Positions 1 to 56,531 of a stretch of 64,000 bases of DNA are shown here, piece by piece. The stretch comes from Amphibalanus amphitrite (Eukaryota), in contig NW_024881521.1 of assembly GCF_019059575.1 (NCBI RefSeq), forward strand, positions 729,297-793,296. Reading direction: 5' to 3'. Below the pieces are notes generated by a model, which had not been told where the DNA came from, did no database searches, and saw nothing but the letters and a program-made list of their open reading frames with translations. Every line of letters starts with the position of its first letter. Position 1 is the stretch's first letter. Both the position numbers and the translations under genes were made by a program.

Positions 1-3000
1 GTCAGTTCTGACAGTCCGAGCGGCCGCGGGGTTTCATCTTGCTGTGCTGGCACGCCGGGCGGCCGTGGGGCCATTGGGTCGCCTAAGCCGGTGCTGGCAG
101 GCCGGGGAGCCTTGGGGTCCCTCCTGTCGGTGCTGGCAGGTCGGGCGGCCTTGGGGTCGCCCCTGTTGGTGCTGGGAGGTCGGGCATGCCTAGCGGCCTT
201 TGGGTCGCCTCTTCTGGTGCTGGCAGGTCGGGCAAGCCGGGCGGTCGTGGGGGTCACCTCTGCCGGTGCTGGCGGGTCGGGTGGCCGTGGGGTCGCTTTG
301 TTTCGTGCTGGCAGGCCGGGCGGCCATGTTTTCGTCCCTGTCAGTTCTGACAGTCCGCGCAGTCGCGGGGTTTCATCTGTCTGTGCTGGCAGGCCGAACA
401 GGCCGGACGGCCTTGGGGTAGCCTCTGCCGTAGCTGGCAGGCCGGGCAGCCGTGGGGTCGCCTCTGCCGGTGCTGGCAGGTCGGGCAGGCCGGGCGGCCA
501 CGTTGTCGCCTCTGCCGGTGCTGGCAGGCCGGACGGCCTTGGGGTAGCCTCTGCCGTAGCTGGCAGGCCGGGCAATTCGGGCGGCCGTGGGGTCGCCTCC
601 GCCGGTGCTGCAAGACCAAGTGGCCGTGGGGTCGCCTCCTTGGGTGCTGGCAGGTCAGGCTTCCTTGGGGTTGCCCCTGTCGGTGCTGGGAGGTCGGGCA
701 GGCCGGGCGGCCACGTTGTCGGCTGTCGCCCATGTTGGTGCTGGGAGGTCGGGAAGCCTGGCGGCCTTTGGGTCGCCTCTTCTGGTGCTGGCAGGTCGGG
801 CAAGCCGGGCGGCCGTGGGGTCACCTCTGCCGATGCTGGCGGGTCAGGCGGCCGTGGGGTCGTCGTTGCCGGTGCTGGCAGGCCGGGAGGGCGTGGGCTC
901 AACTCTGCCGGTGCTGGCAGGTCGGGCGGCCGTGGGGTCGCCTCATTTCGTGCTGGCAGGCCGGGTGGCCACGTTTTCGCCTCTGTCAGTTCTGACAGTC
1001 CGAGCGGCCGCGGGGTTTCATCTTGCTGTGCTGGCACGCCGGGCGGCCGTGGGGCCATTGGGTCGCCTAAGCCGGTGCTGGCAGGCCGGGGAGCCTTGGG
1101 GTCCCTCCTGTCGGTGCTGGCAGGTCGGGCGGCCTTGGGGTCGCCCCTGTTGGTGCTGGGAGGTCGGGCATGCCTAGCGGCCTTTGGGTCGCCTCTTCTG
1201 GTGCTGGCAGGTCGGGCAAGCCGGGCGGTCGTGGGGGTCACCTCTGCCGGTGCTGGCGGGTCGGGTGGCCGTGGGGTCGCTTTGTTTCGTGCTGGCAGGC
1301 CGGGCGGCCATGTTTTCGTCCCTGTCAGTTCTGACAGTCCGCGCAGTCGCGGGGTTTCATCTGTCTGTGCTGGCAGGCCGAACAGGCCGGACGGCCTTGG
1401 GGTAGCCTCTGCCGTAGCTGGCAGGCCGGGCAGCCGTGGGGTCGCCTCTGCCGGTGCTGGCAGGTCGGGCAGGCCGGGCGGCCACGTTGTCGCCTCTGCC
1501 GGTGCTGGCAGGCCGGACGGCCTTGGGGTAGCCTCTGCCGTAGCTGGCAGGCCGGGCAATTCGGGCGGCCGTGGGGTCGCCTCCGCCGGTGCTGCAAGAC
1601 CAAGTGGCCGTGGGGTCGCCTCCTTGGGTGCTGGCAGGTCAGGCTTCCTTGGGGTTGCCCCTGTCGGTGCTGGGAGGTCGGGCAGGCCGGGCGGCCACGT
1701 TGTCGGCTGTCGCCCATGTTGGTGCTGGGAGGTCGGGAAGCCTGGCGGCCTTTGGGTCGCCTCTTCTGGTGCTGGCAGGTCGGGCAAGCCGGGCGGCCGT
1801 GGGGTCACCTCTGCCGATGCTGGCGGGTCAGGCGGCCGTGGGGTCGTCGTTGCCGGTGCTGGCAGGCCGGGAGGGCGTGGGCTCAACTCTGCCGGTGCTG
1901 GCAGGTCGGGCGGCCGTGGGGTCGCCTCATTTCGTGCTGGCAGGCCGGGTGGCCACGTTTTCGCCTCTGTCAGTTCTGACAGTCCGAGCGGCCGCGGGGT
2001 TTCATCTTGCTGTGCTGGCAGGCCGGGCGGCCGTGGGGCCGTTGGGTCGCCTATGCCGGTGCTGTCAGGTCGGGTAGCCTTGGGGTCACTCCTGTCGGTG
2101 CTGGCAGGTCGGGCGGTCTTGGGGTCGCCCCTGTTGGTGCTCGGAGGTCGGGCAAGCCTAGCGGCCTTTGGGTCGCCTCTTCTGGTGCTGGCAGGTCGGG
2201 CAAGCCGGGCGGTCGTGGGGGTCACCTCTGCCGGTGCTGGCGGGTCGGGTGGCCGTGGGGTCGCTTTGTTTCGTGCTGGCAGGCCGGGCGGCCATGTTTT
2301 CGTCCCTGTCAGTTCTGACAGTCCGCGCAGTCGCGGGGTTTCATCTGTCTGTGCTGGCAGGCCGAACAGGCCGGACGGCCTTGGGGTAGCCTCTGCCGTA
2401 GCTGGCAGGCCGGGCAGCCGTGGGGTCGCCTCTGCCGGTGCTGGCAGGTCGGGCAGGCCGGGCGGCCACGTCGCCTCTGCCGGTGCTGGCAGGCCGGGCA
2501 GCCGTGGGGTCACCTCTGCCGGTGCCGCAAGGCCAAGTGGCCGTGGGGTCGCCTCCTTCGGTGCTGGCAGGTCGGGCGGCCTTGGGGTCGCCCCTGTCAG
2601 TTCTGGCAGTCCTGGTGGCCGCGGGATTTCATCTGTCGGTGCTGGCAGGCCGGACAGGCCGTGCGGCCGTGGGGTCGCCTCCTTCGGTGCTGGCAGGTCA
2701 GGCTCCCTTGGGGTCGCCCCTGTCGGTGCTGGGAGGTCGGGCAGGCCGGGCGGCCACGTTGTCGGCTGTCGCCCCCGTTGGTGCTGGGAGGTCGGGAAGC
2801 CTGGCGGCCTTTGTATCGCCTCTTCTGGTGCTGGCAGGTCGGGCAAGCCGGGCGGCCGTGGGGTCACCTCTGCCGATGCTGGCGGGTCAGGCGGCCGTGG
2901 GGTCGTCTTTGCCGGTGCTGGCAGGCCGGGCGGGCGTGGGGCCGTTGGGTCGCCTATGCCGGTGCTGGCAGGTCGGGCGGCCTTGGGGTCGCTCTTGTCG

Positions 3001-3170
3001 GTGCTGGCAGGTCGGGCGGCCTTGGGGTCGCCCCTGTCGGTGCTGGCAGGTCAGGAGGCCTTGGGGTCTCGCCCCTGTCGGTGCTGGCAGGTCGGGCAAG
3101 CCGGGCGGCCGTGGGGTCACCTCTGCCGGTGCTGGCTGGCCGGGCGGCCATGTGGGGTTGGGTCGCCTCT
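1..3170. repeat. Higher-order tandem repeat: 984-bp unit x ~3.2 copies, built from 39/45/48-bp GC-rich subunits (consensus ggtgctggcaggYcgggcRgccgtggggtcgcctctgcc)
   Basis: Positions 1-60 recur at 985-1044 and ~1969-2028. ORF-track peptides from copy 1 and copy 2 are identical (200..421 = 1184..1405). Copy 3 carries small in-frame indels. Long ORFs occur in several frames on both strands, so the ORFs are not treated as coding evidence. Confidence 0.9.
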
Positions 3171-4047
3171 CTTAATGCTGGGATGTCGAAAGGTAGGTGG
3201 GAAGATCCCGCCCCTGATCGTCCTACTTCACCAGAACTCGCTCGACTCTACTCCTGATTTCACATTTTTCTTTAGCTGCACGTGGACCTTTGGTCCGTAT
3301 TTTTTTTTTTTATCGTTTCAGTCCTAAACCTCTTCAGAGACCAAGTCTGCTCCTAAAGCGCAATTTGCACACGCTTCTGATAGAGTTCACAGCGAGCATG
3401 CATCACAACAAATAAAGTAAACTATTTGATATCGCTCGTGTGGCCTTGGTCCAGGGTATGGCATGCCACCCCATACTTATCCCTACTATTTCAAGTTGGT
3501 GGTCTTGAACTTTGGTTGCTTTTATCTTACAGTTTTCCTCCATTCAAACGCCCGGATACCTACTAGAAGATATTGGTAAAACATAGAAAGGCGGCAAACG
3601 CAAGCAAGAAGGGCTTAATATATTTTTAATGCAAATTTTCCTGGCAAAATTAAACTTCTACCAAGTGTTATGCACTCACCTGAAAGGCAAAAAAGCGCAA
3701 GTGCGTAAAAGTCAGCGCGGTGATAAGCAAGAAAAGCGCAACTACTTAGTTGCGCTTTTCTTGCCTATCACATCGTCCTGACCGCTGCAGATACGCTTTT
3801 TTAATAGCTGTGTTTACGCTTTTTTTGCTTGCGGTCAGGGAGGATGAAAAACATTTACGCTTTTCTCGAAAAAGAAAATTTGATATAACTCGAAAATTAT
3901 ACGAATTTCGAAAAACGGTTTTGCAGAAAGATGGAGATTGCTATTCTCTACCTAATGGTATCAAAATCTCAAAATCGAAAAAATGCGAGTTACGCTTTTC
4001 TTGGTTGTCACGGCAGTCTTGAATAATGCAGTATCTGTTCTTTTCAG

Positions 4048-4136
4048 AATGATTTGCGCGAGTTCTGGTGTCTTCTGGACTGGGCTAACCCCGGGTGTCT
4101 CGGCACCTGTGAACAGTTCGTCAACGACTTTGTGAG
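4048..4136 (+). CDS. ERCC6L2: ERCC6L2-like SNF2 ATPase, exon a (NDLREFWCLLDWANPGCLGTCEQFVNDFV; SNF2 motif III region)
   Basis: Acceptor ttttcag|AAT at 4046-4047, donor AG|gtgagg at 4137. The peptide matches the LQNNxxELW...DWAxPGxLG region of ERCC6L2 orthologues. Confidence 0.75.
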
Positions 4137-4374
4137 GTGAGGCATCACCGTGATAATTTCCTAATAATTTCGTGGGCTTCTACCACCGGCGCCCCTCTTA
4201 GTTTTTTATCATCAATGGCTGTTTTTTTCGTGTCCTGTTATTTTGATTAGTGTTGTAGCTTGAAAAGACCGTACCACAGACAATCACAGCAAAGTGGACT
4301 TTTTCTTATCCACGTAGTGTCTGTCTGCCCCTATAGTAAATTGTACTAACGCGTCCTTCCTTCCCTGTCCCCAG

Positions 4375-4528
4375 GCCGATAGAGCGTGGTCGCCGGCGCG
4401 GTGCCGTGAAGCGGGACGTGGCCGAGTCCTGGCGGCGCCGGGAGCTGCTGGCCACAATGCGGCAGCGCTGGATGCTGCGGCGAACCAAGGCGCTCATTGC
4501 CGACCAACTGCCGAACAAGACCGACCAG
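4375..4528 (+). CDS. ERCC6L2: ERCC6L2-like exon b (RPIERGRRRGAVKRDVAESWRRRELLATMRQRWMLRRTKALIADQLPNKTDQ)
   Basis: TACTAAC branch motif at 4344-4350, acceptor ccccag|G, donor CAG|gtacgt. FLRRTK..I.DQLP.K is the SNF2 motif IV signature. Phase is continuous with exon a (AG+G=Arg). Confidence 0.85.
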
Positions 4529-4789
4529 GTACGTCAGTGTGGGGTGGAGCGGCACGGACCTGGCTAGGAGAGGGAGGAACGGAGAGGAGAGAGGACTGGG
4601 ATTTTGTTTGTTCCCAGAAATGCACTATGACCCCAAAGAGTGTTTTCTGTCCCCAGATAGTTCGTGTCTTGCTCCATCCCAAAATTAGGCACCGTACCTA
4701 CGCCCCCAGGCCCTGCTAATAGCATAGTGTGCTTCCAATTTGTAAAAGTTTACCGGTGCCCTCAAATACGGCAGCCTGTTCTGTGGTGT

Positions 4790-5023
4790 GCCATGTATTA
4801 TGTCTTTAGATGCTGTCCTGTGTTCCCTCAGATACTGTACTGTCCGCCGTCGCCGCTGTAGCGACAAGTCTACAGCGCCGTCCCCCTGTCTGCAGCTGTA
4901 TTCTGTTGTGTCTGAACATTGTGTCCTCTGTCCTCAGATAGTGTACTGTTGTGTCTGGATGCTGTGTCCTCTATCCTCAGATAGTGTACTGTTGTGTCTG
5001 AATGTAGTGTCCTCTGTCCTCAG
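4790..5023 (+). repeat. Tandem array of ~41-bp units duplicating the 3' splice site and first bases of ERCC6L2-like exon c (tgtgtcctctgtcctcagatagtgtactgttgtgtctgaa x3). A longer copy (~4823-4900) carries 60 nt of exon with an in-frame TAG.
   Basis: Direct reading shows repeated cctcagatagtgtactgt motifs upstream of the real acceptor at 5022-5023. Confidence 0.85.
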
Positions 5024-5164
5024 ATAGTGTACTGTCCGCCGTCGCCGCTGCAGCGTCAGGTCTACAGCGCCGTCCTGGACCGGCCCGATGTCCGTCTGCT
5101 GGTCCGCCGCTCCCGGCCCTGTGACTGCGGCAGCGGAAGGAGGGCGGCGCGCTGCTGCCTGAAG
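5024..5164 (+). CDS. ERCC6L2: ERCC6L2-like exon c (IVYCPPSPLQRQVYSAVLDRPDVRLLVRRSRPCDCGSGRRAARCCLK)
   Basis: Acceptor cctcag|ATA, donor AAG|gtaagg. The C.C.SG....CC motif is characteristic of ERCC6L2 (human ...EPCTCRSGQKRRNCCYK...). Confidence 0.85.
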
Positions 5165-5419
5165 GTAAGGTGCTTGTGGGGTGGTAGCGTGCTTATCACC
5201 ACTCTTTCACACCTACTGAAACTGTACTGTTTGACGTCGATTTAGAAGAGTGCTCACCTTTTGGCCCGCTCTGAAGATCTTTTTGTGCCATATTCTTCGT
5301 TAGTGAGAGATTTACCGATTTCATTTTACCATTGCCATGCTGGAAGTGTGTGTTTAATGTGGGTGCTACTGAAACCCGATGTAGTTTTTCTGAAAACGTA
5401 GTTTTCCGTGCCATTTCAG

Positions 5420-5548
5420 CACGAGTCCGGTCCGGCGGCTGGAGTAGCGCTGTCTTACATGAGCCTGCTGATGAAAGTCAGCAACCACCCGTGTCTGCTG
5501 CTGCCCAGCGGGAGCGCCTCCGCTCAGCAGAACAGGATGGCCCGTCAG
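5420..5548 (+). CDS. ERCC6L2: ERCC6L2-like exon d (HESGPAAGVALSYMSLLMKVSNHPCLLLPSGSASAQQNRMARQ)
   Basis: Acceptor tttcag|CAC, donor CAG|gtaaga. Matches LSYLTVLQKVANHVALL of ERCC6L2. Confidence 0.85.
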
Positions 5549-5934
5549 GTAAGACGGGGAACGGGACAGTAGTAGTCAACCACTAACCACCCGTGTCTGC
5601 TGCTGCCCAGCGGGAGCGCCTCCGCCCAGCAGATTAGGATGGCTCGTCAGGTGAGGATATTCAGAGACATATTTGTGTGTCTATTGGGGCGCCTCCGTAA
5701 AACAGAACAAGATGGCATGACAGGTGGGAAAAGTTAGGGACGATTTTTGAGTTAGTTGCATATGTCTGCATCAAATTAGTTGGACGGCTCGGAAGAGGGA
5801 TGCCGGGGCACGCTAGATGAGGAGCAGGAACTATGTGTACTCTGAATTGTAGTCTCTAATGTCTATACATATCTGTTGTTTATGCGTGTAATGTGCCTGG
5901 CTGTTCACGTCACCTGGCCATCGCTCTGTTGCAG

Positions 5935-6036
5935 GTCTGTCAGTCGGTGTTTGACCAGTTTCCAGAGCTGGCCCGCCTCAGCCGCTCACAGGCGTATCGT
6001 GCCCTCTCCGACCCGAAATACTGCGGCAAAATGAAG
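5935..6036 (+). CDS. ERCC6L2: ERCC6L2-like exon e (VCQSVFDQFPELARLSRSQAYRALSDPKYCGKMK)
   Basis: Acceptor ttgcag|GTC, donor AAG|gtaatg. SDPKYSGKMK is conserved in ERCC6L2. Confidence 0.85.
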
Positions 6037-6118
6037 GTAATGGAATGGTACATTAGGGTCGTCGGATATTTGTGAGGAACTGATTGATGACGAGGGTATC
6101 TTCTATCCTCCTGGGTAC

Positions 6119-6337
6119 GGTACACTCGGGGGCAGATTGATGTTCCACCACTCCCTACCCATCGGGCTCCCATGGCTCCCGCACTGGCTGCTGTCAGTGG
6201 CAGGACTGGCAGCACTGGCATTGACAGGCAGTGCTGAGCAGTGCTGAGGGCAGGCAACACCGGCAGCAGCCACTGCTGATCCATGGGAGCCCGATGGGTA
6301 GGGAGTGGTGGAACATCAATCTGCCCCCGAGTGTACC
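6119..6337. repeat. Hairpin/foldback: perfect ~57-bp inverted arms (ggtacactcgggggcagattgatgttccaccactccctacccatcgggctcccatgg) separated by ~105 bp, inside an ERCC6L2-like intron
   Basis: Left arm 6119-6175 is the reverse complement of 6281-6337. The internal segment has further dyad symmetry. No clear TSD. Confidence 0.85.
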
Positions 6338-6471
6338 TATCAACAAACTGTACTAGTTTGCTCACATATTTATGAATTAAGTGTTTGCCGAATGCTCATT
6401 CATTTTGCGATATTTTATATTGGCAATATGATAATGAAGACTGTGTGATCACACCCTGCCTTCATTTGCAG

Positions 6472-6581
6472 GTGCTGACCACCTTAATTGAGCACTTCCG
6501 TCAGAAATCTCAGAAGGTGCTGATATTCTCGTATTCCACTAGAATGCTCAAGATAATTCGGGCCTACGTATTAAATCAACA
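6472..6581 (+). CDS. ERCC6L2: ERCC6L2-like exon f (VLTTLIEHFRQKSQKVLIFSYSTRMLKIIRAYVLNQ(Q); start of helicase C domain)
   Basis: Acceptor tttgcag|GTG, donor CA|gtgagt (phase 2). KVLLFS.ST..LD is SNF2 motif IV/V context. Confidence 0.8.
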
Positions 6582-6907
6582 GTGAGTATTTCCTGGCTCT
6601 TCTTTCAACTGATTGGTTCTTCGTCGCACTACGGAACGTTTCATTGGTTCCTTCACTTGTGCGCCTTGTTTGGTTTTAGGATACAATGCAGGCATGTTTC
6701 AAAAATGAAAGATTACCTGGCTGTGTAAGGCAAGAGCACATGTCAAGCAGTTAGCTACAATATCAAATGACCAGAGCTGCTGTTGGGTGATTGATGATTC
6801 TCTTCAGAGGTTGATCGTGAACTACCACCATTTTCGGTCTCATCAGGTCACCATCACATTCTCCTGACTAATACTGTGCCCGTTTGACCTGACCCGCACC
6901 TCTCCAG

Positions 6908-7111
6908 GTTTGACCTGACCTACATTGACGGCGAGACGCCTGCCTCGGAGCGGCCGGCGCTGTGCGAGCAGTTCTGCCGCCGGCCGCAGTGGGCGGTGGC
7001 GCTAGTGTCGACCCGGGCCGGCGGCCAGGGGCTGAACATTGTGGGCGCCACGGCAGTGGTGGTGGTGGACCCCAGCTGGAACCCGGCGCACGACCTGCAG
7101 GCGCAGGACAG
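6908..7111 (+). CDS. ERCC6L2: ERCC6L2-like exon g (FDLTYIDGETPASERPALCEQFCRRPQWAVALVSTRAGGQGLNIVGATAVVVVDPSWNPAHDLQAQD(R); helicase-C motifs V-VI)
   Basis: Acceptor ctccag|G, donor AG|gtgaga. STRAGGQGLN...DPSWNPAHDLQAQDR matches the canonical SNF2 STKAGGLGLN...DPDWNP..D.QA.DR. Confidence 0.9.
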
Positions 7112-7277
7112 GTGAGAGACGGGGCTAGTACGTAACCATGGAACTTCCTCACATTTTGGCGCCGAAACCCGGCTTGTATTCGTCCAGCGTTTACTCATCC
7201 CGTCACTCAGCTCTGGTCCAGTATTTGCCCCCCGGCCATGTGATTGTGTAAGTCCGACACGGGTTGCTTGCTTACAG

Positions 7278-7365
7278 GGCGTACCGGCTGGGTCAGACCA
7301 AGGATGTGAGTGTGTTTCGACTTGTCACAGCCGGTACGATCGAGGAGAACATCTACCTCAGGCAG
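7278..7365 (+). CDS. ERCC6L2: ERCC6L2-like exon h ((R)[29 protein letters not shown])
   Basis: Acceptor cttacag|G, donor CAG|gtcagt. AYRIGQ...V.RL...GT.EE.IY.RQ is the SNF2 motif VI tail. Confidence 0.9.
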
Positions 7366-7637
7366 GTCAGTGCCAAGGGTCCTAGAACGATCATTTTAAC
7401 AATGTAGAACCAGGCTCATTTTCTGATTACTTCCTCTAGCTATTGGCTAGGGTATTTTTACCTTTAATTTTGAAAGACGTCGCATTGGAGCCCCATATTT
7501 TTGGGGAACAACGCGAAATATGCGAGTCGTTCGTTGCATTTGAGGCCTTTGTCTGCGATCGTTGGCTGCAGTGTTACTGAAATTTCTAGCCACCCACGCC
7601 TCCTGACTCTCCATCTCTTCACCTCCCCGTCCAACAG

Positions 7638-7836
7638 GTGTACAAGCAGCAGCTCTCCACCCTCGCCGTGGAGGGCGGTACCGGCCCGCGACTGTTCTCC
7701 GCCTCCGCCGGCCGACCGGGCCTGCAGGGGGAGCTGTTTGGGCTGCACAACTTGCTGCAGCTGCGGGCGGACGGCAGGCTGACAGAGGGGCTACTGGACT
7801 CACATAGGAGGGTGGAGAGGCTCCTTACTGCCGCCG
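7638..7836 (+). CDS. ERCC6L2: ERCC6L2-like exon i (VYKQQLSTLAVEGGTGPRLFSASAGRPGLQGELFGLHNLLQLRADGRLTEGLLDSHRRVERLLTAA). An alternative donor at 7908 lies in a tandem duplicate.
   Basis: Acceptor caacag|GTG. The peptide matches ERCC6L2 IYKQQL...QGELFGIHNLF. Donor CCG|gtgagg at 7837. A duplicated donor copy (GCTG|gtgagg) at 7909 has the same phase. Confidence 0.75.
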
Positions 7837-8234
7837 GTGAGGGGCCGACTGAGGGAGTGAGGGGCTGCTGGACCCACAGGAGGATCGAGAGGCTACTGAC
7901 GGCCGCTGGTGAGGGGCTGAGGGACGGCCTGATGGATCAGGGACAGATTGAGGCTCCAAAGAACTGCTGGACTTGGACGTAATTTCTGAGACTGGATAAT
8001 TTTTTACTGCTGGCGGTGAGACACTGGGACTGAGAACTGGACTGGCCTGGACTGGCCTGAAAGGCAGTTGACGGACTGGTCGATAGAGTAATAGTTGACT
8101 GAGAGACCGATGGACAGCTGCTTGATGGACTGGCCGTGAGTTTCGTTGCTATTGTTTCGGAAAATCACCATCTGGTTATGCGCCCCTCCCCCGTATCACC
8201 ACACTAGCCAGAACATCCCCCCATTCCCCACCAG

Positions 8235-8462
8235 CCGGTCACGAGGTGAGCGGAGCTCTCCCCGAAGTCCGGGAGGGTGTGGCCGGTCTCACCGTGAGCG
8301 ACTACACGGCCGTGGCGCCCGCTGGCGGCGGGGAGGCGCCATCACCGGAGGGCGCGGAGCTGCTGCCATCTGACGACGAGGTGGATCAAACTCCGCCCGG
8401 CGGCCATCGAGAGGCTGCCGTGGGCGGGGCGGAGGTGACGGCCTCCATCGACGTGGCGCTCA
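8235..8462 (+). CDS. ERCC6L2: ERCC6L2-like exon j (acidic/Ala-rich low-complexity: ...GHEVSGALPEVREGVAGLTVSDYTAVAPAGGGEAPSPEGAELLPSDDEVDQTPPGG...)
   Basis: Acceptor ccaccag|CC is phase-compatible with exon i (G+CC). Donor CTCA|gtaagt. The reading frame is open and matches ORF 8246..8476. No homology anchor. Confidence 0.5.
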
Positions 8463-8955
8463 GTAAGTCAATTTAACATTTTCTCATATTTTGATTCCAG
8501 CTGATGTTTGTATATTGCCGTTTATTGCCTAAGTTTGTATTTAGGAAAGAGATGTATTGCCTTCATTATAAGAATGGCGCACTAAACAGTCCACTTTAGA
8601 ATGTCAGTTCACCACAACAGATTGACTTCAAGAATGAGATCAGGGTCCAATCTGATAAAATGTCGTGCTATTCTATTCACGGCATTTGGTAACATTTACG
8701 GTGATACCAGTGCTGACAAAGGGTTATCCGAGTCAACGAAATGATTCTTAGGATCGTCAACTTATAATGTACTGAAATGCGTGAAAAATTTTGCATTTGA
8801 TAGCCGTTTTCTGCAGCTGAATTTCAGTCAGTGCTGCTATATCCATTCCACGGCGTTCATAAGATTGATCCCAGATCATTTCAGATCACGTAAGCTTAGT
8901 TCATAAGTGACACCTGACGTCTCTGGGCTCTGACCGCCTTCTCCCGCTGCTCCAG

Positions 8956-9110
8956 GGGACTGCGGCGTGCGCCACGTGCACGGTAACGCCCCACTCGTGG
9001 CCGCCAGCCGGCTGGAGGAGCACGTGGCGCGCCAGGCGACCCGTGCCGTGTATCAGCTGCACGCGGGCACCCAGGAGCCGGCCGAGAGGTGCGCCCCGCT
9101 GCCGCCCCAG
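8956..9110 (+). CDS. ERCC6L2: ERCC6L2-like exon k ((R)DCGVRHVHGNAPLVAASRLEEHVARQATRAVYQLHAGTQEPAERCAPLPPQ)
   Basis: Acceptor gctccag|GG gives A+GG=Arg, phase-compatible with exon j. Donor CAG|gtgagt. Supported by ORF 8967..9161. Confidence 0.5.
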
Positions 9111-9378
9111 GTGAGTCGAGAACTAATTGTACGGAGGGAACGGACTAACGGCGAACCCTGAGGAAGAGGGACGGACTTCAGAGGAATCGAAATGGGCTAA
9201 GGGTTGTTATGCTGTGTGGAGGTTAGTCAAGTGTTCACCAAAAGGATAACTAATCTCTTGAGTTATTGCTGGTTGTGGATGTTGCAATGGCGGATGACCG
9301 TGGATACCGAGTCCGACTAATGGCCAAATCATTCTTGCTGAACTCCATTAACACGCTTTTGTCTCCGTTTCTCTCCAG

Positions 9379-9589
9379 CGGAGCGGGAGCGGCCGCGGGG
9401 CCCAGCGGACGCCCCGCCAGCCTCCGCCGGTACCTCCCGGCGGCCTGCCCCGTCCGTCCGACCCGACCCCGCAGCACAGCGCGGCGATCCGGCCGTCTGG
9501 GAGCCGCAGCGGCCGCCGGCTACCCTCCGTCCTTACTGGAGAGGCCAGTCCGGCGCCGCGGGGGAGCGACGAGTCACCGGCCGGATCAG
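9379..9589 (+). CDS. ERCC6L2: ERCC6L2-like exon l (Pro/Ser/Arg-rich low-complexity)
   Basis: Acceptor ctctccag|CGG, donor TCAG|gtagga. Frame is open. Supported only by splice-phase continuity. Confidence 0.4.
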
Positions 9590-9739
9590 GTAGGACAAGG
9601 GGTGGTAGGAGGAGACAGGATTCGGGGAGAAGGAGAGAGGAGTCGGGGAGGAGGAGAGAAGAGTCGGGAGGGAGGCAGGGCTCAAGCCGGAGGAGGCAGG
9701 GCTCCGGCCAGCGGAGAACTCGTCGGCATCGACCCACAG

Positions 9740-10272
9740 TGGTGGATCAGGCTACTAGTACGGACTGGGAGGAGGCAGGGGGACTGACAGGGGCGGTAGC
9801 TGGTGACCAGAGTGGCGAGGATGCTGCTGCGCCGGCGGCGGAAGGGGCTGTGTCTGATCATGGTGCTCGAACACCTCCGACCATGGCGGCTGCCGACAGC
9901 GATGACTCGGTTGTTCTGGCCACACCGCCGCGATTAGCCACTCCGCCCCCGGTGGTGGAGATAGAAGAGGATGTCGAACACCCTGTACCCCCTCCGATCT
10001 CGGAGATCGGCCCGCGCTCACCAGAGACCGTGGTCGCCTCCAGCGGCCCCAGTACCCCCAAACGGCCGCGGACCACAGCTGCCTCAGGCGGCGGCACGGC
10101 CATGGACGCGTTCTTAGACCGGCTGCTGGAGTCTCCCGTGCGCCGCCCGCCGCCCAGCCGCCGCCCCCGCCCCCGCCCCCGCCCTATAGCCTCCGTCGTC
10201 ACTGAAGACAGGCAGGAGGGTGACGTCATCAGCCGCTGGGTCCGTGATGGGAAGGTGTCCATTGTGAAATGA
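9740..10272 (+). CDS. ERCC6L2: ERCC6L2-like terminal exon (...VVDQATSTDWEE...PRPRPRPIASVVTEDRQEGDVISRWVRDGKVSIVK*); TGA at 10270-10272
   Basis: Acceptor cccacag|TG gives G+TG=Val, phase 1 from exon l. Matches ORF 9739..10272 (177 aa). An AT-rich 3' UTR follows. Confidence 0.5.
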
Positions 10273-10517
10273 TTGGTCAAGGCGAGACCCTGGTGAGACT
10301 GCAACTACACTTACAAATACGCCAAGTACAACACTTCTGTGTGATGTTTGGGATGGATGTGGGGTGCGGTGATGTTGTTCTGTTTGAAGGGGTGTCAGTA
10401 TGTGACACGGGGTTCATGAACGGTACAATGTGGGGGATTACATGCTATCTGTGATATATTATAGATGCATGCTTTTTCTAAATTGTACAGTAGCTGTTTT
10501 CGCGTGGTGTCAGTTAA

Positions 10518-11376
10518 AGGTAGTGTGCCACCTTTGAAAGATTTCCCATTTTATTTTTCCTAGGATAAGAAGCTTCTGTTTTTACCTAATATCGCAAAAA
10601 AATCAAAAATGGGCCTGGAATAGTGCCTTTTTCGCCTAAAAGTTTTTCGGTTTTTAGATATGTATAACAACTGTAGTGGGCTCACCTGCAAACAGGCGTC
10701 GGGCAACAATCGCGAATGCGGCGCACTTGTGACAATAAGCAAAGGTCATTATAGTGTTACGACCATACGACGTACGGGAATGAGTTATCAGCTGTCTAAT
10801 CGTAGACAACACAATGTCGAGCCTTAAACTGTAAGCCCGTATTGGTATTGTTTCTTTTATTTGGCTGTCGAACATTATTTATGGTTTGAAATATGATTTT
10901 ATGTAAAATAATTGATATGAAAAAGCCGTCTTATAAGTTATGACCCCATTCCACCACACGCAAGTGGCAGAAATGACAATGATCAGCTGACGCATTTTTC
11001 TTGGCCGAAGTCAGAGCGCGCGGCCCGACGCACCACGCGTATTTGGAAATTCCGACCTCGACGAGCATCAGAAGCCACCTAACAGGCGTGTTCGAAACCG
11101 CAGGAGATGATGATGAACGGGTTTATCGAAACTTGATTGGATGAACATATCGGTAATAGCGATTTCAGTGTGTGCATTTATTGTTCATTGTGGTGTGAAA
11201 TGTGGTTGGGGTACGACCGACAACCCGTCGGGGCGAATTTCGCACTGGGGTACTCAAAATTTGAAGAATTTAAGACGTTTCCATGAGTTTTGAAGGTATG
11301 GATAAGTTCTAAAAATCCGGTTCTCCTTATCTGGGCCATTAACTCCATACGGTCCAAGAAAGCTGGCACACTACCT
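10518..11376. mobile_element. Putative non-autonomous DNA transposon (~859 bp) with 17-19-bp terminal inverted repeats (AGGTAGTGTGCCACCTTT / AAAGCTGGCACACTACCT), flanked by TTAA on both sides
   Basis: 10518-10535 is the reverse complement of 11359-11376 with one mismatch. TTAA sits at 10514-10517 and 11377-11380. The interior is AT-rich with no long ORF. Confidence 0.45.
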
Positions 11377-12955
11377 TTAATAGTTTAGCATTTGTGCTCC
11401 GTCGACTAGAGCGTAAGTGCGCTTTTTAGCATATTCGTGCTATAGCACAATCCGTGTATGGATGTGCTGTGCTTGCTTGGTTTTGAATTCGTTATTCACT
11501 ATTTGAATTCATCATTTGTGCGTAAAAGGTAGCATTTTTGGGCGTAATTGTTTCAAACAATCCAATGACGCAAAGTATGTAGCGGCTGAATTCGTATGGC
11601 AATCTGTGACTTGATGCAGGCCGTATATATTCTGTGATATGCTAAGCAGCTTTATTAACCAAATTTTGATGACATTGTCTCACGTGCGCGCTTTATTTCT
11701 GTTGTGCTTTTGTGACCTGCATGTGCCGAAATGTGATCTTCCTTGTGATGAATGTGATCGTCCTCTTATGATGCCCCTCCTCACCGAGGCGGGCACTTAA
11801 ATCCTACAAAATCCGAGACATGTGACCATTGCTTTGTCTCTCGACGGAAGAAACGTGCCTTCCGCTTCATTTCAAAGTTCTCGCACAAATGTGGTAGCTG
11901 ACCTGCTATTTGTAATATACCACATGCTCCACCGGCATATAACCTGTTTCGCGATGGAATCCTAGACAGAAAGGAGTATTCGGTTGACCTGAAACACTGT
12001 TTTCCATGACACATATTTATTAGGTACAATTACAGGCTAGATATAAAAGATATTGTAATCGTGGGAGAATCGTTCGACACATGCGTACAGCTGGCTTACG
12101 CAGTCCAAACAAACCGTAACAAATGAGCACAGATTGCCGGCAGAACGGAGATGGAAAGTCCAATACAGGCCCCAATGACACGCAAAACAGTCGACCTGAA
12201 AGAATGCGGAACACAACGAAAACAGTGTTCATATGGCACGCGACTTTTGATGACACCCAAGTTCGTGTTGGCGCGGCTGCGCCAAGTAAGGTCGGTTCGT
12301 TCGGCACACAGTCACTGAGCAAATGGGTCAGTCAGGAACGTCCAGTGGAGACACAGGCGGAGACAGAGACAGAGGCAGAGCGAGAGACAGAACAGCTCAC
12401 ATAACACGCCACTGAACAACCAAACGGCCAACACGAACACAACGAGATACAGCGACCGATCACGCGGCTCCCTCCTCCGTGCTCACTCACTCCTAGACGG
12501 GTGGCTCGGCACTGGAGGCACTTGCGCTAACGGGTGTCTGTCGACAGCGGCGGCCCGCGGCTCGACGGGCGACCGAAGGCCCTCCGCCACCGGCCAATGC
12601 TACCGATCGCCGCACATACTATGACTTATTCACATCGTGTGTACACCCACACATACACACGCACACGCACAAGCACACGGTTGGCCCACAGAAGGAAGGC
12701 GTCAGTCATCATCCATGTAACACTCACAGATAGTCAATACAAGTAAAACGTATCACAATGGCCATCTGGCCGGTAAAATATCTTCAATCACAAAGTAAAG
12801 CTTGACGCGGCGCTCGCCGAGTCGACAGCAGCGCCGCGGCGGCGCGCAGCGCAACCACACTGTCGTCCTGACGTCCATAGGTGGCAGCACCGCGGCGGCC
12901 CCACTCGCTGTACAGTCCGCGGGTATTCACAGCTCGGCTAGGGCGCGGCGGCCGA

Positions 12956-15267: not shown

Positions 15268-16877
15268 CTGGCGAGAGAACGGTTATGTCAGAAAAATGTG
15301 CGTCATACACAGTCAGAGGGGAGGAGTGAACGGGGTAGGGTAATGACATGAGTGAGTTGGTTTGGAATCTGGATACACATATACCCTGGATACACCCGGA
15401 GAATCTATCTGACGAAAGCTCAGGAGCTCGGGATAGAGTGTCAGGAAACGGTCAATCGAGCTGGACCGACGGGAGATAGACGAGACATTAAAATTAGCAA
15501 TGAGACGATGACCGGGGTCTAAATGGCAAGAGCGGGTCATTAGCTGAATAAGGTAACGGTACGCGCCAGGCAGTCTGCAGGAATACTCGCGGAATCTTTC
15601 CAAAATCTCGACAACCAGCCCGGTCCGCGGTGCCAACAGCTATCACCAGGCACACGATTCCGATCAGAATGGGGTCATGCGGGTATCAACTCCCGGGCGC
15701 CCAATTCAGCCCACATGCACGCTCACATTCACTCAAAATGCATGTGGCACGCAAAAGCCGCGCTAGCATACACCAAAGTACACTCTGGGGCTCTTTGTCA
15801 GTGCCCTGCTGAGCTCAGCGGGGCTGATGGTCAGCGCTGCGAGAGCCGCCGCTGCCGCTCTCAGTCATGGCCATACCACGCCGACTAATGCGAGCCAGGC
15901 TAATACACCCGGTCCGGACCGGCTGACCGCGGTCCGGTAAGATGCACGGTGTCCACGCCAGATCAGATCACGGCCGAGAGGCAACAGGCGACATAAGTCC
16001 CCAGATGGCGGAGACCAGCCGACCGCGGACAGGGACACATGGGACAGGATGGAATGAGCGGATCCCATGGGACAGGGAAGAGCGGTATACAAAGTTGGAC
16101 GGAACGGGACGGGATGGGACGGGGAGCAGACCGGATAGAATAAGAATAATAGAATAGGGCGGCGCGAGTGGAACCTGAACCGAAAATAAGACACAGGAAC
16201 AAGGGGAAACTAAATAAAGTACAACAAATAAAGTAGAACGAAACAGGCACAGATGAAACACGGAGAAAGGACGATGGAGATATGGACCGATTAGGACGGG
16301 ATATGAGTGATAAGACGGTACGAGATGCGATGGCGCCCGGTCAGTCCCAACTTATAGCACCACTCCGGCTGCAGGATCAGGCCGAGCGAGGCCGGTTCAG
16401 GATTTCCAGGATGTACGGACATCATATGTGAGGGTATGTCCCAGAGGATTATACCGGATTTGGATTGCAGGCATCGCAGGAATGCTCATTTAGAAACAGG
16501 AACATAGCCGCGACGGACTTGTTCAAGAGTTAGAGCTGGGCCGTGGGCGCTAATGCGGCAACATGCCAAAGCTACAGGGCCCGGCTCGGTTCAGTCCATA
16601 GTTACCATTCTTCCCGATGAAGCGAGCTTGAAAAGAGAATAGTAGTGCTTTTAGTTGGATCGCTTTTGATATAATCAGATACCTATCATCAATTAGCATA
16701 AGCCCCATGATGATTGTAATCCGACAGCCACGACTTGCCGAAATATCGGGTGTGTCCTGTCAAGGCCTAATCTCATCGAGCCGTCGTATTTGAATCAAAC
16801 AGGTTTCGTTAAAAACAACAAAACAGCTGCCTGTCTGCGCGGTGGAAGATATTGCTCAGTTTATGAGGCCCACTTAC

Positions 16878-17046
16878 AGATGAAGAAGTAGTCCTGGCCG
16901 GGCCGGAACTCTAGCCCTCCCGGCTGAGGTGTGAATGACCGGAAGGTGATGGTGAAGAACATCAGCTTGTACGGCTTGTCGCAGACAGCGATGATGCGCG
17001 GGTTCGGGTTGGTGATCCGACATGTGTCGTACTCCTCCTTCGACAC
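16878..17046 (-). CDS. Ephrin RBD exon 3: VSKEEYDTCRITNPNPRIIAVCDKPYKLMFFTITFRSFTPQPGGLEFRPGQDYFFI
   Basis: Minus-strand acceptor ttttcag|GTG and donor ATCT|gtaagt. FTI.F..F.P...GLEFRPG.DYFFIS is the ephrin core signature (compare EFNA5 ...[20 protein letters not shown]). Matches ORF 16861..17046. Confidence 0.9.
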
Positions 17047-20000
17047 CTGAAAACAGACGCGACGGTTAGGTCACAGGTCAGAGGTCACAGGCAAAATGTC
17101 ACAGGTCATGGTTGGGAAAAATGCCCTCGAGGCAGACTACTAGATCAGCATTTTGGGCCTACAAATGCGTAAATGATGTAAATGTGCATGTGATGCAAAC
17201 GGCCAGTGGGACGACACATAGGCAGGGGTCACAGGGAACATTCGAACAAGTCACCTGACCCAGACCAACGGCATTTAGAGCGCCGCAGAGGGTCACCTGA
17301 CCTAGGTGATGGTCGGTTGGGACCACAGGCACCGCAGCCATCACTACGCAACCGCCGAAGGAAGGGTTATCGACGGGTGACCGCACCGTGGACAGTAAAC
17401 GGTGGGATGAGCTCAGAGGTCAACAGCGCAGAGGCTCCTTCAACACCAAGTCCAATCTTAAACCCACCGACAAAGGAGTTGCGATAGCTCTGTTGAATTA
17501 ATTAATAACGACCGTCTCCATCAAAGAGACATATATTTAGTAACATCCTTTGTCACCACCGCCCAGACGTTTTCAAACCAGTCTACCAGCTCCGCCCGAG
17601 TCGCAGCGTTCCGGCGCCATCGAGTTTGATCGGCTTATCCCGCCGGTCCTGAGTCCTGACAGCTCCCCAGTCCCATGACAGGAGCGTCTGAGCTGCGTCC
17701 TCTGAGCCACCGGGGCCGCGATTTCGCCGTGAGCTGACGACGGACCCTGAATGGGGAGCCGGCGGACCGTCACTGGCAGTTTGGGCACCACAGAGAGGAG
17801 CAGACTCGGCCGCCGACGACAGGGTCGCGGGACGACAAAGCGCGGCACACCCTCCACCTGAATGGGCGGCGTCCCTGGCGGCGACAGTCAGCCGTCTGAA
17901 CGGATTAACCTGGGGAGGCTGCTGCTCTCTCTCCGGGACGGTCGCAGCTGCGGCGGCTCCGCTCTGCCCTGCTGCCGACTGTCCTCATAGGCCAGAGGGG
18001 AGGATGGCACTGTCACCGGCGGTGCCGACGAGCGGCTCTGAGCAGCGCGATCCGCCGCGACTGATGCCAACTGATGGCGGATCATGGTGGCGGCGCTGAC
18101 GGCAGCACCGAGCCACGACAGTCTGGACGAGGGTCTCCATCAAACGAGCAGCCGCCGGTGACCGGTAACACGAGTGGCAACACGGGCCAGACCTGTCGTA
18201 CGCTGTGGGCGATCCGATGCTGGCATTAGTGTGTGCAGTCACTGCTGGGACCGAGGCTAGGAACAAAACCAAAACCGACCCCAGGTTTGGGATAAGTGTT
18301 TGAAACGTCCACCGTCGCCGCTCAAGCGTCGTGCACTGTCTGTCGGCTGTCCGTCCATCTATCCTGCATCATATGCCCTTCGTCTGTCCGACCGTCCGTC
18401 CATCCGGCTGTCTGTGGCGAAGGATTCATCCGTTTGTCTATTCGTGTGTGGTGGTGAGGGTGCCGTCCGCCCGTCCGTCGTCCGCCACTCATCGTCTGTC
18501 CGTCTGTCTGCCCGTCGGTCGGCGGTCGGCGGTCGGCGCCGCGGCCGCAGCCGCAGCCCGTCCGGAGCCCCAGGCGGTGCCGGCCGCCGCACCAGACCAA
18601 TCACTCCACCGCTCATGACGAGACGGCATGCAACGCGCGCCCACCGCCGACCGGCCCGGCCCGTCCGCTCAGCTTCGGTCCGCGAGCAAAGCTGATGGAC
18701 GGTCCAAGGCACGTTAGCAAAGTGAAGATAGGAGTCGGCATCGGCAGTGCAGACAACTTCTCCGGGAGGATGCCGGTAGGCCAGAGAAACCTTGCATGCT
18801 ATCCACGGGTTTGACACGGACCCATGATTCTGACCACCCTGTCTAGCTAGCCTGTCGCTTAGACAAAGCTCGACTCCAAGGGCCGTGGTTTCAGACAACC
18901 ACCCTGCATGTCTCTCCACCGCCGCGTTGACCACCCATCGCCCCTGCACAGCCGTCCCGCCGCCACAATCGGCCCCCCAGCGCCCGGAGCCGTCAGGTGG
19001 TGGACGCTGTTTTCCGTTCGAGATCAATTATTGCGCCGGCGGCCTTGGCGTTAAATGCGCACGCCGGACAGCGATTGTGCTACCTCCGAAGGGCCCGCGA
19101 CTGCTGAGGGTCACCGAGGCGCCGGCTGGGCCCATTGAAAAGACCTGCGAGCAGTGTGTAGCCTGAAATACCAAGCGGAAGTCCGCGGAGCTGCGTTCTA
19201 GGGTCGGGCACACTGGGTGACCAGGCATGGCGTCCAGGTGCAATGGCGAGGCACGTGATGACGCCACCGGGATCACCTATGTTGACAGCCGAAATCCCCA
19301 TCACGCCGCGCCCCGACCCGACACGCCATCAGCGTGGCGTCATCGCCGGCAATAAAGGACGCGTCCCGTCGGCCGGCCATAAAGGCCGGTTCCTATCGGT
19401 GCGATATGGCAGCGCCGCTGAGCCGGGTGCAGCTCGGCCGCTCAGATAACCAGCAATAATCGCCGCGTCCGCGTCCACTGTCACGACTAATTTATGGCCC
19501 GGAACGGTGACGCAACGCGCTCTGAGGACGGTCGCAGACGGGCGTGATGCAATGGCCGTATACTGCAGTCGTGATTAGCGGATATGTATTGGCGTGTGGA
19601 TGAAATGCAGACAATGCGACCTGCCGTTTCAACAACAAAATTGTGCGCGACTTTTTTCGGCATTAATAACTCAACGAATGTTCAGTTGAAAAGAGAGGCT
19701 CGTGTATCATTTAAATTTGATCATCTCCAACTCAGTCGGTTAATCGGTAGGAATTCATTAAAAACGACAGGCCGTTTGAGTGACGAACGATCAAAGCAAA
19801 CCGAGCCACCGAGCTGGCTGGTGCACCATAGCTCATTTGTCAAGTAAACTACACCTGGGCATGGCCTGCACAGTGCAGAGACCAAGCCCAACACATCATC
19901 TGTACACAGCACAACAGTCGGTGGCCGGCGGACAATGCAGTTCTGCAGCTCGGTGCTGCACGCCGGACAGTGCTACATGTCCGGCCGAATTTCGCCCGGT

Positions 20001-20078
20001 GTGTGTCCCGTGGAATGCGGCCGTCTATTGCGCCGTTCGCCATTGACAAATGTGCACAGCCCGTTCAGCGGTACTCAC

Positions 20079-20220
20079 GTTATATATGATGTATTTCTCC
20101 GTATCCTCTTCCTTGGTCCATTCACTGTAGCTCGGACAGATAATGGTCACCTGGTCGTACTCGAACAGGTTGTTGCCCTTGTTGACGTCGATGATGTGGT
20201 CTGTGTTGCTGATCTGGAAT
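20079..20220 (-). CDS. Ephrin RBD exon 2: (I)FQISNTDHIIDVNKGNNLFEYDQVTIICPSYSEWTKEEDTEKYIIYN
   Basis: Minus-strand acceptor cctttttcag|A and donor AAC|gtgagt. The D.LDIICP...YYKLY(L)V-like block of the ephrin receptor-binding domain. Phase-continuous with exon 3 and with the exon 1 donor. Matches ORF 20025..20246. Confidence 0.85.
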
Positions 20221-23200
20221 CTGAAAAAGGAGAGAGACAGGCCCAAGTCAGATGATGTTTGACGCCACAGAATGGCATTTCAGACAGAAAGGGTTCACTG
20301 CATGGCGAGCTTTAGTGCGGCTCTACAGGGCATTATTACAGCCAGTCTGGGCGAGTCCAACAGGGCTAGCAGCACCAGTGAACAGACGGGACTGGGACTA
20401 GAGCAGGGCCAAAGAGCACCAGACACGACCGGCCGTCAGCGCACCGGGCCGGGGCGGGGCTCGACTTCTCCGGTCACGCCGTTCCGGCCGTGGCCACGGG
20501 CACTGTCTGGCGAGGGTGGAGCGCCACACTCGCCGCCGGAGCGCCACTTTCGCCGCCGGCAGCCGCGCACGGCCCACAGGAGGAGGAAGGAGTGGAAGAG
20601 GAGGTCAGAGTGGGCCGGGCCGCCCCACAGAGAGCCGCAGGGCATGGCGAAAAACGGCGCTCTCATGATCGGAGAATACGACCGATAACGGTATCCGACC
20701 CGACCCGACGGATGCTTGCCACTTGATCACAAGTCAGCGTTACACATAGCCGTGGATAGGCTCTACGGGCACCTTCTCCCGATTACTCCCTGACAAAACC
20801 ACAAATCCGCACCTCACTAAAATTCCGCTCCCACGCAGAAAAACGCGTTTTCTTGGCAAATACACGCGCACAGTCATCCCTCGCACGCAAAGGCGGCGCG
20901 GTGAATTAGACCCGCCGTGTGGCGAATTAGTCCCGAAGTGGTCCGAATTAGGTCTGCTATCAGCCGGGCGCGGGGCGCCACGTTTGCCCCGGCCCCATAT
21001 TGACACAGCGCGCGGAGCGGGATAAGGGTTTCCTGCGCCGGCCGTTTGCTCGGCGCGGCGCGGTGTCGAATGGCACCGGCCGCTGGGGGCGCGCTGTTTG
21101 ACAAATCGGAAGTGGATGGAAGCGGTCAAACAGGAGTGGCGCCGCCGGTCAATACGGGGTCAAACAGCCGGTCGGTCGGACGGACGGCCAGCTGGTCCCA
21201 CCGGACGTCCGCCGCGCGGCGCGGGACTCGGCGGGTCGGCTCGGCCGTGCAACTATCGGCGTACTGCTGACACTGCCGGCGAGTTGATACAAAGTACCGT
21301 TCCCAAAGACCGACACAAACATGCCAAACGTCCAGTCGGCAAAGAGTAATCGGACACACGACCGCCGGTGATAGGAATTTAGGGGCCGGTAACTCTACCG
21401 ACCACGGACCTCGCGCGGCGGTATATCTGCAGCGTGCCCTCTGCCAACAGTACCATGTTCCGCGCCACACGGGCCTTTGTTCGGGGCGGAGGGCGCGTCT
21501 CCGACCGGCGCCAGGTCGACGGGAACACTCTGACGATGCCAGACCGATCAGAGGTGGTCCGTGGTGAGGTACACATCGTGCTCGTCAGGTTGATCTGAGT
21601 CGGGCGCCGTGCCAGCCAACTGTCGGCGCGTCGGCACTGACCACGGCCCGCAAAACTGCTGAGACGACGGCTCGATTCAGCGCTACATACAGGCAGTGGT
21701 GCAGCGGCGAGGCAGCGCAACGCAGGGGTACACACGCACACAAACCACCGTCACGCATTCTGCGCACGGACGGAGGGGAGAACGGCGCAGGGGAGAGGAG
21801 GGGAGCCGAGTCGGCGGCGGCGGTCCCCTGTACCGGCGCGGTGAGACGGATACCCTACACCTGGCGTGTCGAGCGGCAGGCGCGTCGCACAGTCGGCAAA
21901 CACGGTCCGAAATCCCACAGACCGGCGGCGGTTCAGCAGCCCAGGGGATCACTGGGGACTCGAAGATGGAACGGACGGGGTCGACCCGCACCCTGCCCTC
22001 CTTTACCACTCGCTCATCCAGTCACCCTCTCTGCCCGCGCCTCCCTCCTCCACTCTCTCCTCTCTGCGCGGCGCGCCGTTCTCGCAGATCCGTATCGTCG
22101 CCGCCGGCGGCGCCCGGCCGGCCGACCGACCCAGATGTGAGCGGCGCCATCATCTCCGTCGAACGGGAACGGACGGACCGCCGCATCGGCCGGCCGCCTG
22201 CCTCCCAGCGCACGGACGGAGGGGAGCACCGCGTCTCCCCGGCCCGACAGATCAACACATGACTGACCGACCGGTCCACTGTCAGGGTTGATGGACGAAT
22301 GGGTAAAGGGACAATCCACAGGGACACAGCCCGAGGGTCGCACAATAGCAGCGTGTAAAGGCGCACGTGCCGCGTGTGTTTCAGTCCACGTGTAATCACC
22401 ACTGCCTGGCGTGTTACACGTGTTGCCGCGGTTACGGCAGCAGCGGACTCGCAATTATCGCCTAGGGGAGAAGGCGACTGCAGAGGACGTGGTTACTGCT
22501 TCGCGGTCGTAGATCACAGCTGGTCTACCGCAACACTGCCAGTGCAAAATTTGCCCCCGGCTTATCCTACCTGTACCAGCACTGTCCCGGATCTACGGCA
22601 TTGTCCCCTCTGACCGTTGTTGCGCTTTACTCTCTGGCTGCTGCTGACACCATAGCTCCCAAAGCGGGCTACACCAGCGCACTACAACTCACTCTTGGAA
22701 AGTGTGGCGGCACACGCGGCGCGGCGGAGCCCATTAGTGCACTGAATGGGCGGCGGCAGAGGTGGGCAGGGCGGCTGCCAATCGCGCGGCGCACGACCTC
22801 CGCAGCTGCCGCGCCGGGGCCCGGAGCCGGAGACGGCCGCCGCCGGAGCCGGGCCGGGCCGGACCCCGGGTCCTTGAGTCGGCGTGGGAAACGCGCACCG
22901 ACCGGTAGATCATAAGAACTGGTTGTCGGCATGTCAACCAGACAACTCAGCAGTCAATAGATTTGATTCATTGCATTCCGCAGGATAAAGACAAAACAAC
23001 TTGCAAGCTGTCCATTTTTGGCAACAAAGGTGGCCTCCCATAAAGCTCCTTTCAACATGCGCAATGAATTATGAATTACGACAAAATAATGCTCCCGCAA
23101 AAACAGCGAACAACACAAATACTGTGTAAAAACAATGCTTGACCTCCAGTCGCCAATCAGGAACCCTACCACAAAGCGCCTGCAACATCCGCCACCGCCG

Positions 23201-27635: not shown

Positions 27636-27920
27636 CCTCGCAGTGGCACCACCGGCCTCGCAGGGGCACCACCGGCCTCGCAGGCATCACGGCATCACGC
27701 AGGCCGCAGGGGCACCTTGGGCCTGTCGGGGGCATCACGGGCCTGTTGGGGGCACTTAAGGCTTGTCAGGGGCACCACAGTCCTGTCAGGTCCCAGGGGC
27801 ATCAGCAGCCTAGCAGGGGCACCCTAGGCCCGCCAGAGGCTCCACAGGCCTGCCAGGGTCCAGGGGCACCACAGGCCTAGCAAGGGCACCACGGGCCTGT
27901 CAGGGGCACCTCAGGCTCCC
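27636..27920. repeat. Minisatellite, ~21-bp unit (ggggcaccacgggcctgtcag-like) x ~13
   Basis: Direct reading of 27640-27910. Confidence 0.8.
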
Positions 27921-27926
27921 GTGCTA

Positions 27927-36295: not shown

Positions 36296-36432
<137 letters not shown>

Positions 36433-56423: not shown

Positions 56424-56531
<108 letters not shown>

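Follow-up and report, generated by a model that had tools for sequence, protein, structure and literature searches.

The DNA analysed here, referred to throughout as the window, is a stretch of 64 kb that contains a multi-exon gene on the + strand, with GT-AG introns, extending from at least position 4048 to about 10272. Searches of its spliced product against Pfam returned an SNF2-related domain (PF00176, 60 bits) and a Helicase_C domain (PF00271, 70.7 bits). The proteins that it matches best, at 45-48% identity, come from amphioxus (uncharacterised), from Trichoplax, and from gecko, sponge and birds, where they carry the name ERCC6L2. On these domains and best matches, the gene is predicted to be an ERCC6L2/RAD26-like SNF2 helicase of the DNA-repair type. 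Its exons have a GC content of 0.64 (0.78 at third codon positions) vs 0.49 in its introns. The N-terminal half of the helicase is encoded by exons that lie outside the window. A GC-rich (0.72) satellite of about 74 units of 39 nt, with a higher-order period of ~984 nt, occupies positions 69-3168, presumably within a helicase intron 5' of exon a. This satellite was considered as a boundary-spanning array of the preceding exon and rejected; that exon lies outside the window, and the satellite unit is unlike an exon end when positions 1-420 are read through.

Other repeats were observed along the gene. Two near-palindromes, at 3689-3802 (118 nt, 76% self-complementary) and 6119-6337 (227 nt, 82%), lie in introns and look like small hairpin-forming (MITE-like) insertions, as judged by their sequence. 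The last coding exon contains in-frame tandem repeats of 21 nt and 6 nt at 9607-9716 and 10143-10184; since the open reading frame at 9352-10269 is open throughout, the GT at ~9591 is probably no donor. Tail-to-tail with the helicase gene, an ephrin gene on the minus strand was recognised by two exons (16864-17070 and 20028-20279) that are 71-79% identical to insect and arachnid ephrins, while vertebrate ephrins match weakly (E ~1e-7). The DNA is accordingly most likely from an arthropod, and a vertebrate (lamprey-like) origin, which the GC-rich exons had suggested, was rejected on the strength of these ephrin matches. Contigs L003 and L004 carry ephrin exon reading frames 97-98% identical to those of the window, and the helicase gene is absent from L003. 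In the Logan contig L003, an ephrin exon-3-like segment lies beside the orthologue. Metagenome scans with helicase exons c-g returned distant homologues only, at most 58% identical in the conserved core, and scans of the window with Rfam and for tRNAs gave zero matches.

The junction of interest is that between exon d and its downstream intron. Exon d (5420-5548, + strand, 129 nt, phase 0 to 0) was delimited by its GT-AG borders and reading frame, encodes HESGPAAGVALSYMSLLMKVSNHPCLLLPSGSASAQQNRMARQ, and is colinear with the orthologues from amphioxus, Trichoplax, gecko, sponge and coral, which bears out its original assignment as an exon. In the gene model it is followed by a 386-nt intron (intron d/e, 5549-5934) and by exon e (5935-6036, VCQSVF...YCGKMK), the productive partner of the exon d donor in splicing. 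The position of intron d/e was compared at 5548|5549 and 5934|5935 in the window, at 3459/3566 in contig L001 and at ~30902 in contig L002. Here the intron lies before VCQ, in Trichoplax 3 codons upstream and in gecko 6 codons upstream, and the 3' boundary of exon e (GKMK|) is identical in all three. Given introns within 3-6 codons in Trichoplax and gecko, intron d/e is ancient, the duplications inside it are later events, and hence they are no trace of intron birth. The alignments suggest that this position may be a hot spot of intron sliding.

The end of exon d and its donor site are present three times in succession, as had been predicted from the sequence alone. The first and authentic copy (5483-5553), taken as the reference, consists of 66 exon nucleotides and the donor CAG|GTAAG, with its GT at 5549-5550. 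The original prediction had placed this copy at 5500-5554; the repeat is there, and its start lies 17 nt further upstream, at 5483. A first spacer (5554-5584) follows, in which a codon walk from the exon reveals an in-frame TAG TAG at 5570-5575. The second copy (5585-5655) again contains the exon tail and ends in a pseudo-donor, CAG|GTGAG, whose GT at 5651-5652 lies 102 nt past the real donor. The second spacer (5656-5671) is AT-rich; where it ends is uncertain (5671-5685), owing to decay in the 5' part of the third copy. This third copy (5672-5729) has a core at 5686-5725 and a pseudo-donor, CAG|GTGGGA, with its GT at 5724-5725, 175 nt past the real donor. All of these elements are on the + strand, and both extra copies lie in the 5' half of the intron.

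Copies 1 and 2 are identical at 66 of 71 positions at an offset of 102 nt (blastn E 1e-20), and copy 2, read in register, gives NHPCLLLPSGSASAQQIRMARQ. The five differing positions comprise two synonymous changes, one dinucleotide change from AAC to ATT (Asn to Ile) and an A to G change at position +3 of the donor, so that the four exon-part substitutions and the CAG|gtgagg donor originally reported were recovered, together with the donor change. Copy 3 retains AAC, which indicates that the Asn to Ile change is derived in copy 2; a derived non-synonymous change, as read from these three sequences, argues against coding constraint on that copy. The core of copy 3 is identical to copy 1 at 31 of 40 positions and to copy 2 at 29 of 40, and in a MAFFT alignment, which opens an 11-nt gap against copy 1, the copy can be followed upstream to ~5672. 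Relative to copy 1, 6 of its 11 changes convert G/C to A/T, and its GC content is 0.51 vs 0.66, as expected for exon-derived sequence drifting in an intron of 49% GC. Both the greater divergence of this third copy, with its gtggga donor, and the growth of divergence with distance from the exon (66/71, then 31/40) agree with the original reading.

Self-similarity was scored in 300 dinucleotide-preserving shuffles of positions 5400-5800, taking the best self-match of each. The shuffles reached at most 27/40 over 40 nt, against 40/40 observed, and at most 39/70 over 70 nt, against 65/70 observed. To test copy 3, the rest of the intron was shuffled 2000 times; the highest count was 24, and 31/40 was never attained. 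The exon d copies are far beyond chance, and the objection that the original prediction had raised against itself, that the similarity might be mere low-complexity GC content, fails. The repetition is confined to the tail of the exon and the initial 5-6 bases of the intron. The spacers, of 20-30 nt, showed no significant mutual similarity (5554-5584, 5656-5685 and 5726-5765; P = 0.46, 0.79 and 0.16), a search for their source elsewhere in the window found nothing above shuffled controls, and TRF reported nothing across the copies. The exon d copies are not a clean head-to-tail array.

Within the 386-nt intron, the GT sites of the three donors (CAG|GTAAGA, CAG|GTGAGG and CAG|GTGGGA) are the sole ones to match the consensus at 6 or more of 9 positions, donor 1 matching at 8 of 9. 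Predicted duplexes with U1 have energies of -11.0, -11.6 and -10.3 kcal/mol for donors 1, 2 and 3, towards the strong extreme of a range of -5.6 to -12.2 kcal/mol for the other donors of the gene. By predicted pairing, then, the two distal donors should be U1-competent, and they equal or surpass most real donors of the gene in strength. Donor 1 alone keeps the reading frame open, and read-through beyond it meets the TAG TAG at 5570-5575. Donor 2, at +102 nt, is in frame yet behind these stops, while donor 3, at +175 nt, is out of frame. An orthologue alignment at the exon d junction showed no insertion, and protein searches with the exon d read-through, the copy 2 reading frame and the reading frame of the last exon gave zero matches. 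Reading frame and orthology together suggest that the distal donors are decoys that are probably unused, although leaky use may occur, and with it some cost or function.

Each of the 22 exon boundaries of the gene was compared with its adjacent intron by Smith-Waterman alignment, with the other introns as controls, and by blastn exon by exon. Three boundaries stand out, namely the exon d donor (score 55), the exon c acceptor (54) and the exon i donor (39), against control scores of at most 16; the remaining boundaries do not stand out. The acceptor side of exon e contains no echo of the exon d tail (score 10), and a scan of positions 3200-12000 for local duplications found none beyond the cases at exons c, d and i. 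In each of these three cases, similarity to the exon is highest in the copy closest to it.

At exon c, which the original prediction had rightly named as another instance of the phenomenon, the echo (4801-5035, + strand) is on the acceptor side. It consists of an older, longer copy at 4801-4883, containing the polypyrimidine tract, the AG and ~52 exon nucleotides, and of a younger array of 3.1 units of 43 nt at 4903-5035, the last unit of which spans the real acceptor (AG ending at 5023). Unlike the exon d copies, this array is contiguous and head to tail. The motif CCTCAG|ATA occurs four times, with AGs ending at 4831, 4937, 4980 and 5023; the last of these, the most downstream, is the real one, and all three upstream copies lead to stop codons. 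That the real acceptor is the most downstream is awkward for the rule that the first AG after the branch point is used.

The third case is the exon i donor (7785-7927, + strand), where the exon tail and G|GTGAGGGGC are repeated; the exon ends at 7836, its copy lies 72 nt downstream with a donor at 7908|7909, and a third, weaker copy ends near 8015. Here the second donor keeps both the phase and the open reading frame, and its use would add 24 amino acids, GEGPTEGVRGCWTHRRIERLLTAA. This makes the second donor of exon i a plausible alternative 5' splice site that keeps the frame, and by the same token an ambiguity for annotation.

These copies lie in a window that is unusually rich in tandem repeats and duplication-prone, with 12 local-repeat loci in 64 kb, including two large satellite blocks of which the first is GC-rich. 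A 40-nt segment is perfectly duplicated in tandem at 61956-62035, and a direct repeat, perfect over 67 nt (up to 82 nt), lies at 44224-44290 and 44696-44762, 472 nt apart. Both point to local duplication in the very recent past or to a repeated element. A related ORF fragment is present again at 50308-50484. Further satellite, minisatellite and microsatellite blocks were observed at 46867-50890, 27621-27924, 40463-40702, 36286-36544 and 56420-56595, these five having units of 20, 81 and ~257 nt and a repeat based on 4 nt.

Repeat periods in the coding part of the last exon (21, 21 and 6 nt) are all multiples of three, whereas those at the boundaries are 43, 102, ~73 and 72 nt. The contrast bears the mark of filtering by selection rather than of a targeted mechanism. 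The clustering of copies at boundaries was modelled by placing duplications of 71-81 nt at random in the gene and purging those that are wholly exonic. The chance that all three of three survivors span a boundary was 0.044 unweighted, and 0.143 if a constrained copy doubles detectability. Chance and the purging of exon-internal duplications could thus suffice to explain the clustering, and a special status of the boundaries is not demonstrable.

Taken together, we consider it probable that the exon d copies are relics of two successive local duplications across the junction between exon d and its intron, tolerated since the upstream-most donor restores the mRNA, and now decaying. In each event, a segment of ~60-80 nt, made up of the GC-rich exon tail and the first 5-6 intron bases, would have been copied. 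An older event would have left copy 3, and a younger one would have put copy 2 between copy 3 and the exon, an order that accounts for the growth of divergence with distance from the exon. As long as the upstream-most donor is kept in use, the extra copies would be removed as intron, the mRNA would be unchanged, and the duplication would be harmless. Duplications wholly within an exon would break or lengthen the protein and would hence be purged. The copies would at present be non-coding and decaying, and use of their donors would add the TAG TAG to the message, making it unproductive and subject to nonsense-mediated decay.

The unrelated spacers, and the sharp end of the similarity just past the donor, call for an extra step, which we envisage in one of two forms. 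By one route, the copy would have ended just past the donor and landed ~20-30 nt downstream, as in templated or filler-type insertion. By the other, gene conversion from the exon would later have restored uniformity to the exon-like part of an older tandem array. The exon-like part of copy 2, ~93% identical to the exon between flanks with no detectable similarity, fits both routes. Both extra copies cease ~5-6 nt into the intron, and this shared end might instead be due to selection for keeping a donor.

Arrays of a similar kind have been described in human genes, where the first monomer of a minisatellite lies across an exon-intron boundary: F7 IVS7 (37 bp), LMNB2 (100 bp), PDGF intron 4 (81 bp), CBS IVS13 and IFI6 (6-16) intron 2 (Borensztajn et al. 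2006, PMC1557585). In F7 the pseudo-sites were functional when tested, yet the upstream-most site alone is used, while in IFI6 and CBS splicing also takes place at the two closest pseudo-sites (PMC1557585). As in the F7 IVS7 and LMNB2 type, the unit repeated at exon d takes in the end of the exon together with its 5' splice site, the donor recurs in the intron, and the pseudo-donors appear competent in sequence, with adequate predicted complementarity to U1. The productive exon d site would likewise be the upstream-most, as judged by frame and orthology, and the unit size, ~102 nt and then ~73 nt, resembles that of LMNB2 and PDGF. There are also differences. The human minisatellites have 5-25 near-identical monomers, whereas exon d has three copies that are 7% and 22% diverged; F7 repeats 4 exon nucleotides, whereas the exon d repeat is mostly exon (66 nt); the exon d spacers are unrelated and the copies are not contiguous head to tail, unlike the human arrays; and the host is an arthropod-like genome.

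Duplications across splice junctions have also been discussed in connection with the gain of introns. Internal tandem duplications that span splice sites, and intron gain, are said to have been treated by Gao and Lynch in 2009. Partial-gene tandem duplications that include splice signals are a well-documented source of new introns (Lehmann et al. 2010, PMC2891723; PMC2809761), and the potato RdRp gene is a case of intron gain by tandem duplication (PMC4974935). The exon d copies resemble these duplications in that the copied segment takes in a splice signal along with some exon sequence, in that splicing removes the extra copy, and in that nonsense-mediated decay can be a safety net for mis-spliced products. 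They differ in that no new intron is made; an ancient one is lengthened and decoy donors are added. Tandem alternative 5' splice sites provide a further comparison, since there too one exon is followed by similar donors at short distances. The copy at exon i (+72 nt, frame kept) would fit this class and that of in-frame exon extensions, whereas the exon d extension contains two stop codons and cannot yield a protein isoform.

The strong pairing predicted for the distal donors raises an alternative in which the copies are maintained alternative 5' splice sites, such that splicing at donor 2 or 3 brings the TAG TAG spacer into the message, directs it to nonsense-mediated decay and so tunes the level of the helicase (regulated unproductive splicing). 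The near-equal complementarity of the three donors to U1, and their being the only good GT sites in the intron, would fit such a role. Use of a distal donor always brings in a premature stop, as is characteristic of an AS-NMD element, here the in-frame TAG TAG at 5570-5575. The exon-like part of copy 2 is far better preserved than the spacers, with 5 differences in 71, and the CAG|GTRRG core is kept in both copies, with the similarity ending right after it. Against this, copy 3 is decaying, with 22% mismatches, an 11-nt gap and loss of GC, and retention of a 5-nt core at 22% divergence would be expected by chance in ~29% of cases. RNA structure prediction over 5420-5760 gave no unusual signal (z = -0.92), and the analogous human arrays are silent relics or show at most constitutive use of the nearest pseudo-sites (PMC1557585). 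Regulated unproductive splicing agrees with all that was observed, and its positive support consists of donor strength and the good preservation of copy 2; we regard it as unlikely at exon d.

A broader proposal would be that the junctions of GC-rich exons in this genome are preferred targets of recurrent copying and reinsertion, or that the copies are kept exon-like by gene conversion or selection, with the decoy arrays acting as a brake on helicase expression through unproductive splicing. Hints in this direction come from the echoes at 3 of 22 boundaries, from the gradients of young copies near the exon and old copies far from it, and from the common end of the donor copies. Further hints are the ~93% identity of copy 2 between unrelated flanks and the placement of intron d/e at 0, -3 and -6 codons in three lineages. 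This proposal is a speculative one to which we give little credence. If it were true, the decoy arrays would also be a steady source of intron growth and of shifts in exon boundaries.

The copies could also be read as the footprint of intron creation according to the Rogers model, in which an exon segment containing AG|GT is duplicated in tandem and the new intron runs from the first GT to the second AG. The repeated unit does include CAG|GT, the CAG of copy 2 lies 102 nt (34 codons) past the real junction, and new introns are documented to arise through tandem duplication (PMC2891723, PMC4974935). The intron itself, however, is not new, given the introns within 3 codons in Trichoplax and 6 codons in gecko. 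In addition, the real intron runs for 386 nt to 5934 with the copies in its 5' half, its 3' end is unlike the exon d tail (score 10), and exon e does not follow the CAG|GT of copy 2. These observations make intron creation very improbable.

A reading of copy 2 as a 75-nt mini-exon (5576-5650), alternative or mutually exclusive, that replaces or follows exon d is less credible still. Its length is divisible by three, and no stop interrupts the frame between 5576 and a point past 5650, the translation being STTNHPCLLLPSGSASAQQIRMARQ. At the putative acceptor, gggacagtagtag|TC, however, there is no pyrimidine tract; splicing of donor 1 to 5576 would require an intron of 27 nt; and skipping of exon d would remove the conserved LxxLLKVxNH block. 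The open frame, moreover, runs on through the donor into copy 3, as is expected by chance for ~50 codons. That the similarity is fortuitous, the product of low-complexity GC-rich sequence or an assembly artefact, might be suggested by the GC content of the region (0.66) and by a window full of GC-rich satellites, but can be dismissed with near certainty, as the dinucleotide-preserving shuffles never approach the observed identity, no simple repeat was reported by TRF, and differences of 7% and 22% with an indel are not produced by assembly duplication errors.

Returning to two successive duplications across the exon d junction, tolerated and now decaying, the case is probably an ordinary by-product of local duplication, of a kind already described in human genes, and a near-neutral quirk of this helicase. 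It nevertheless offers a natural test of 5' splice-site choice, with three equally strong donors placed 102 and 73 nt apart. The rule that the first site wins, inferred from human F7, can be checked at exon d in a short-intron gene of an arthropod-like genome. The exon i copy carries a warning for gene prediction, as it provides an in-frame alternative donor and annotation pipelines could pick either site. More generally, duplication across a junction illustrates how introns grow, how pseudo-splice sites originate and how new exon sequence may possibly arise.
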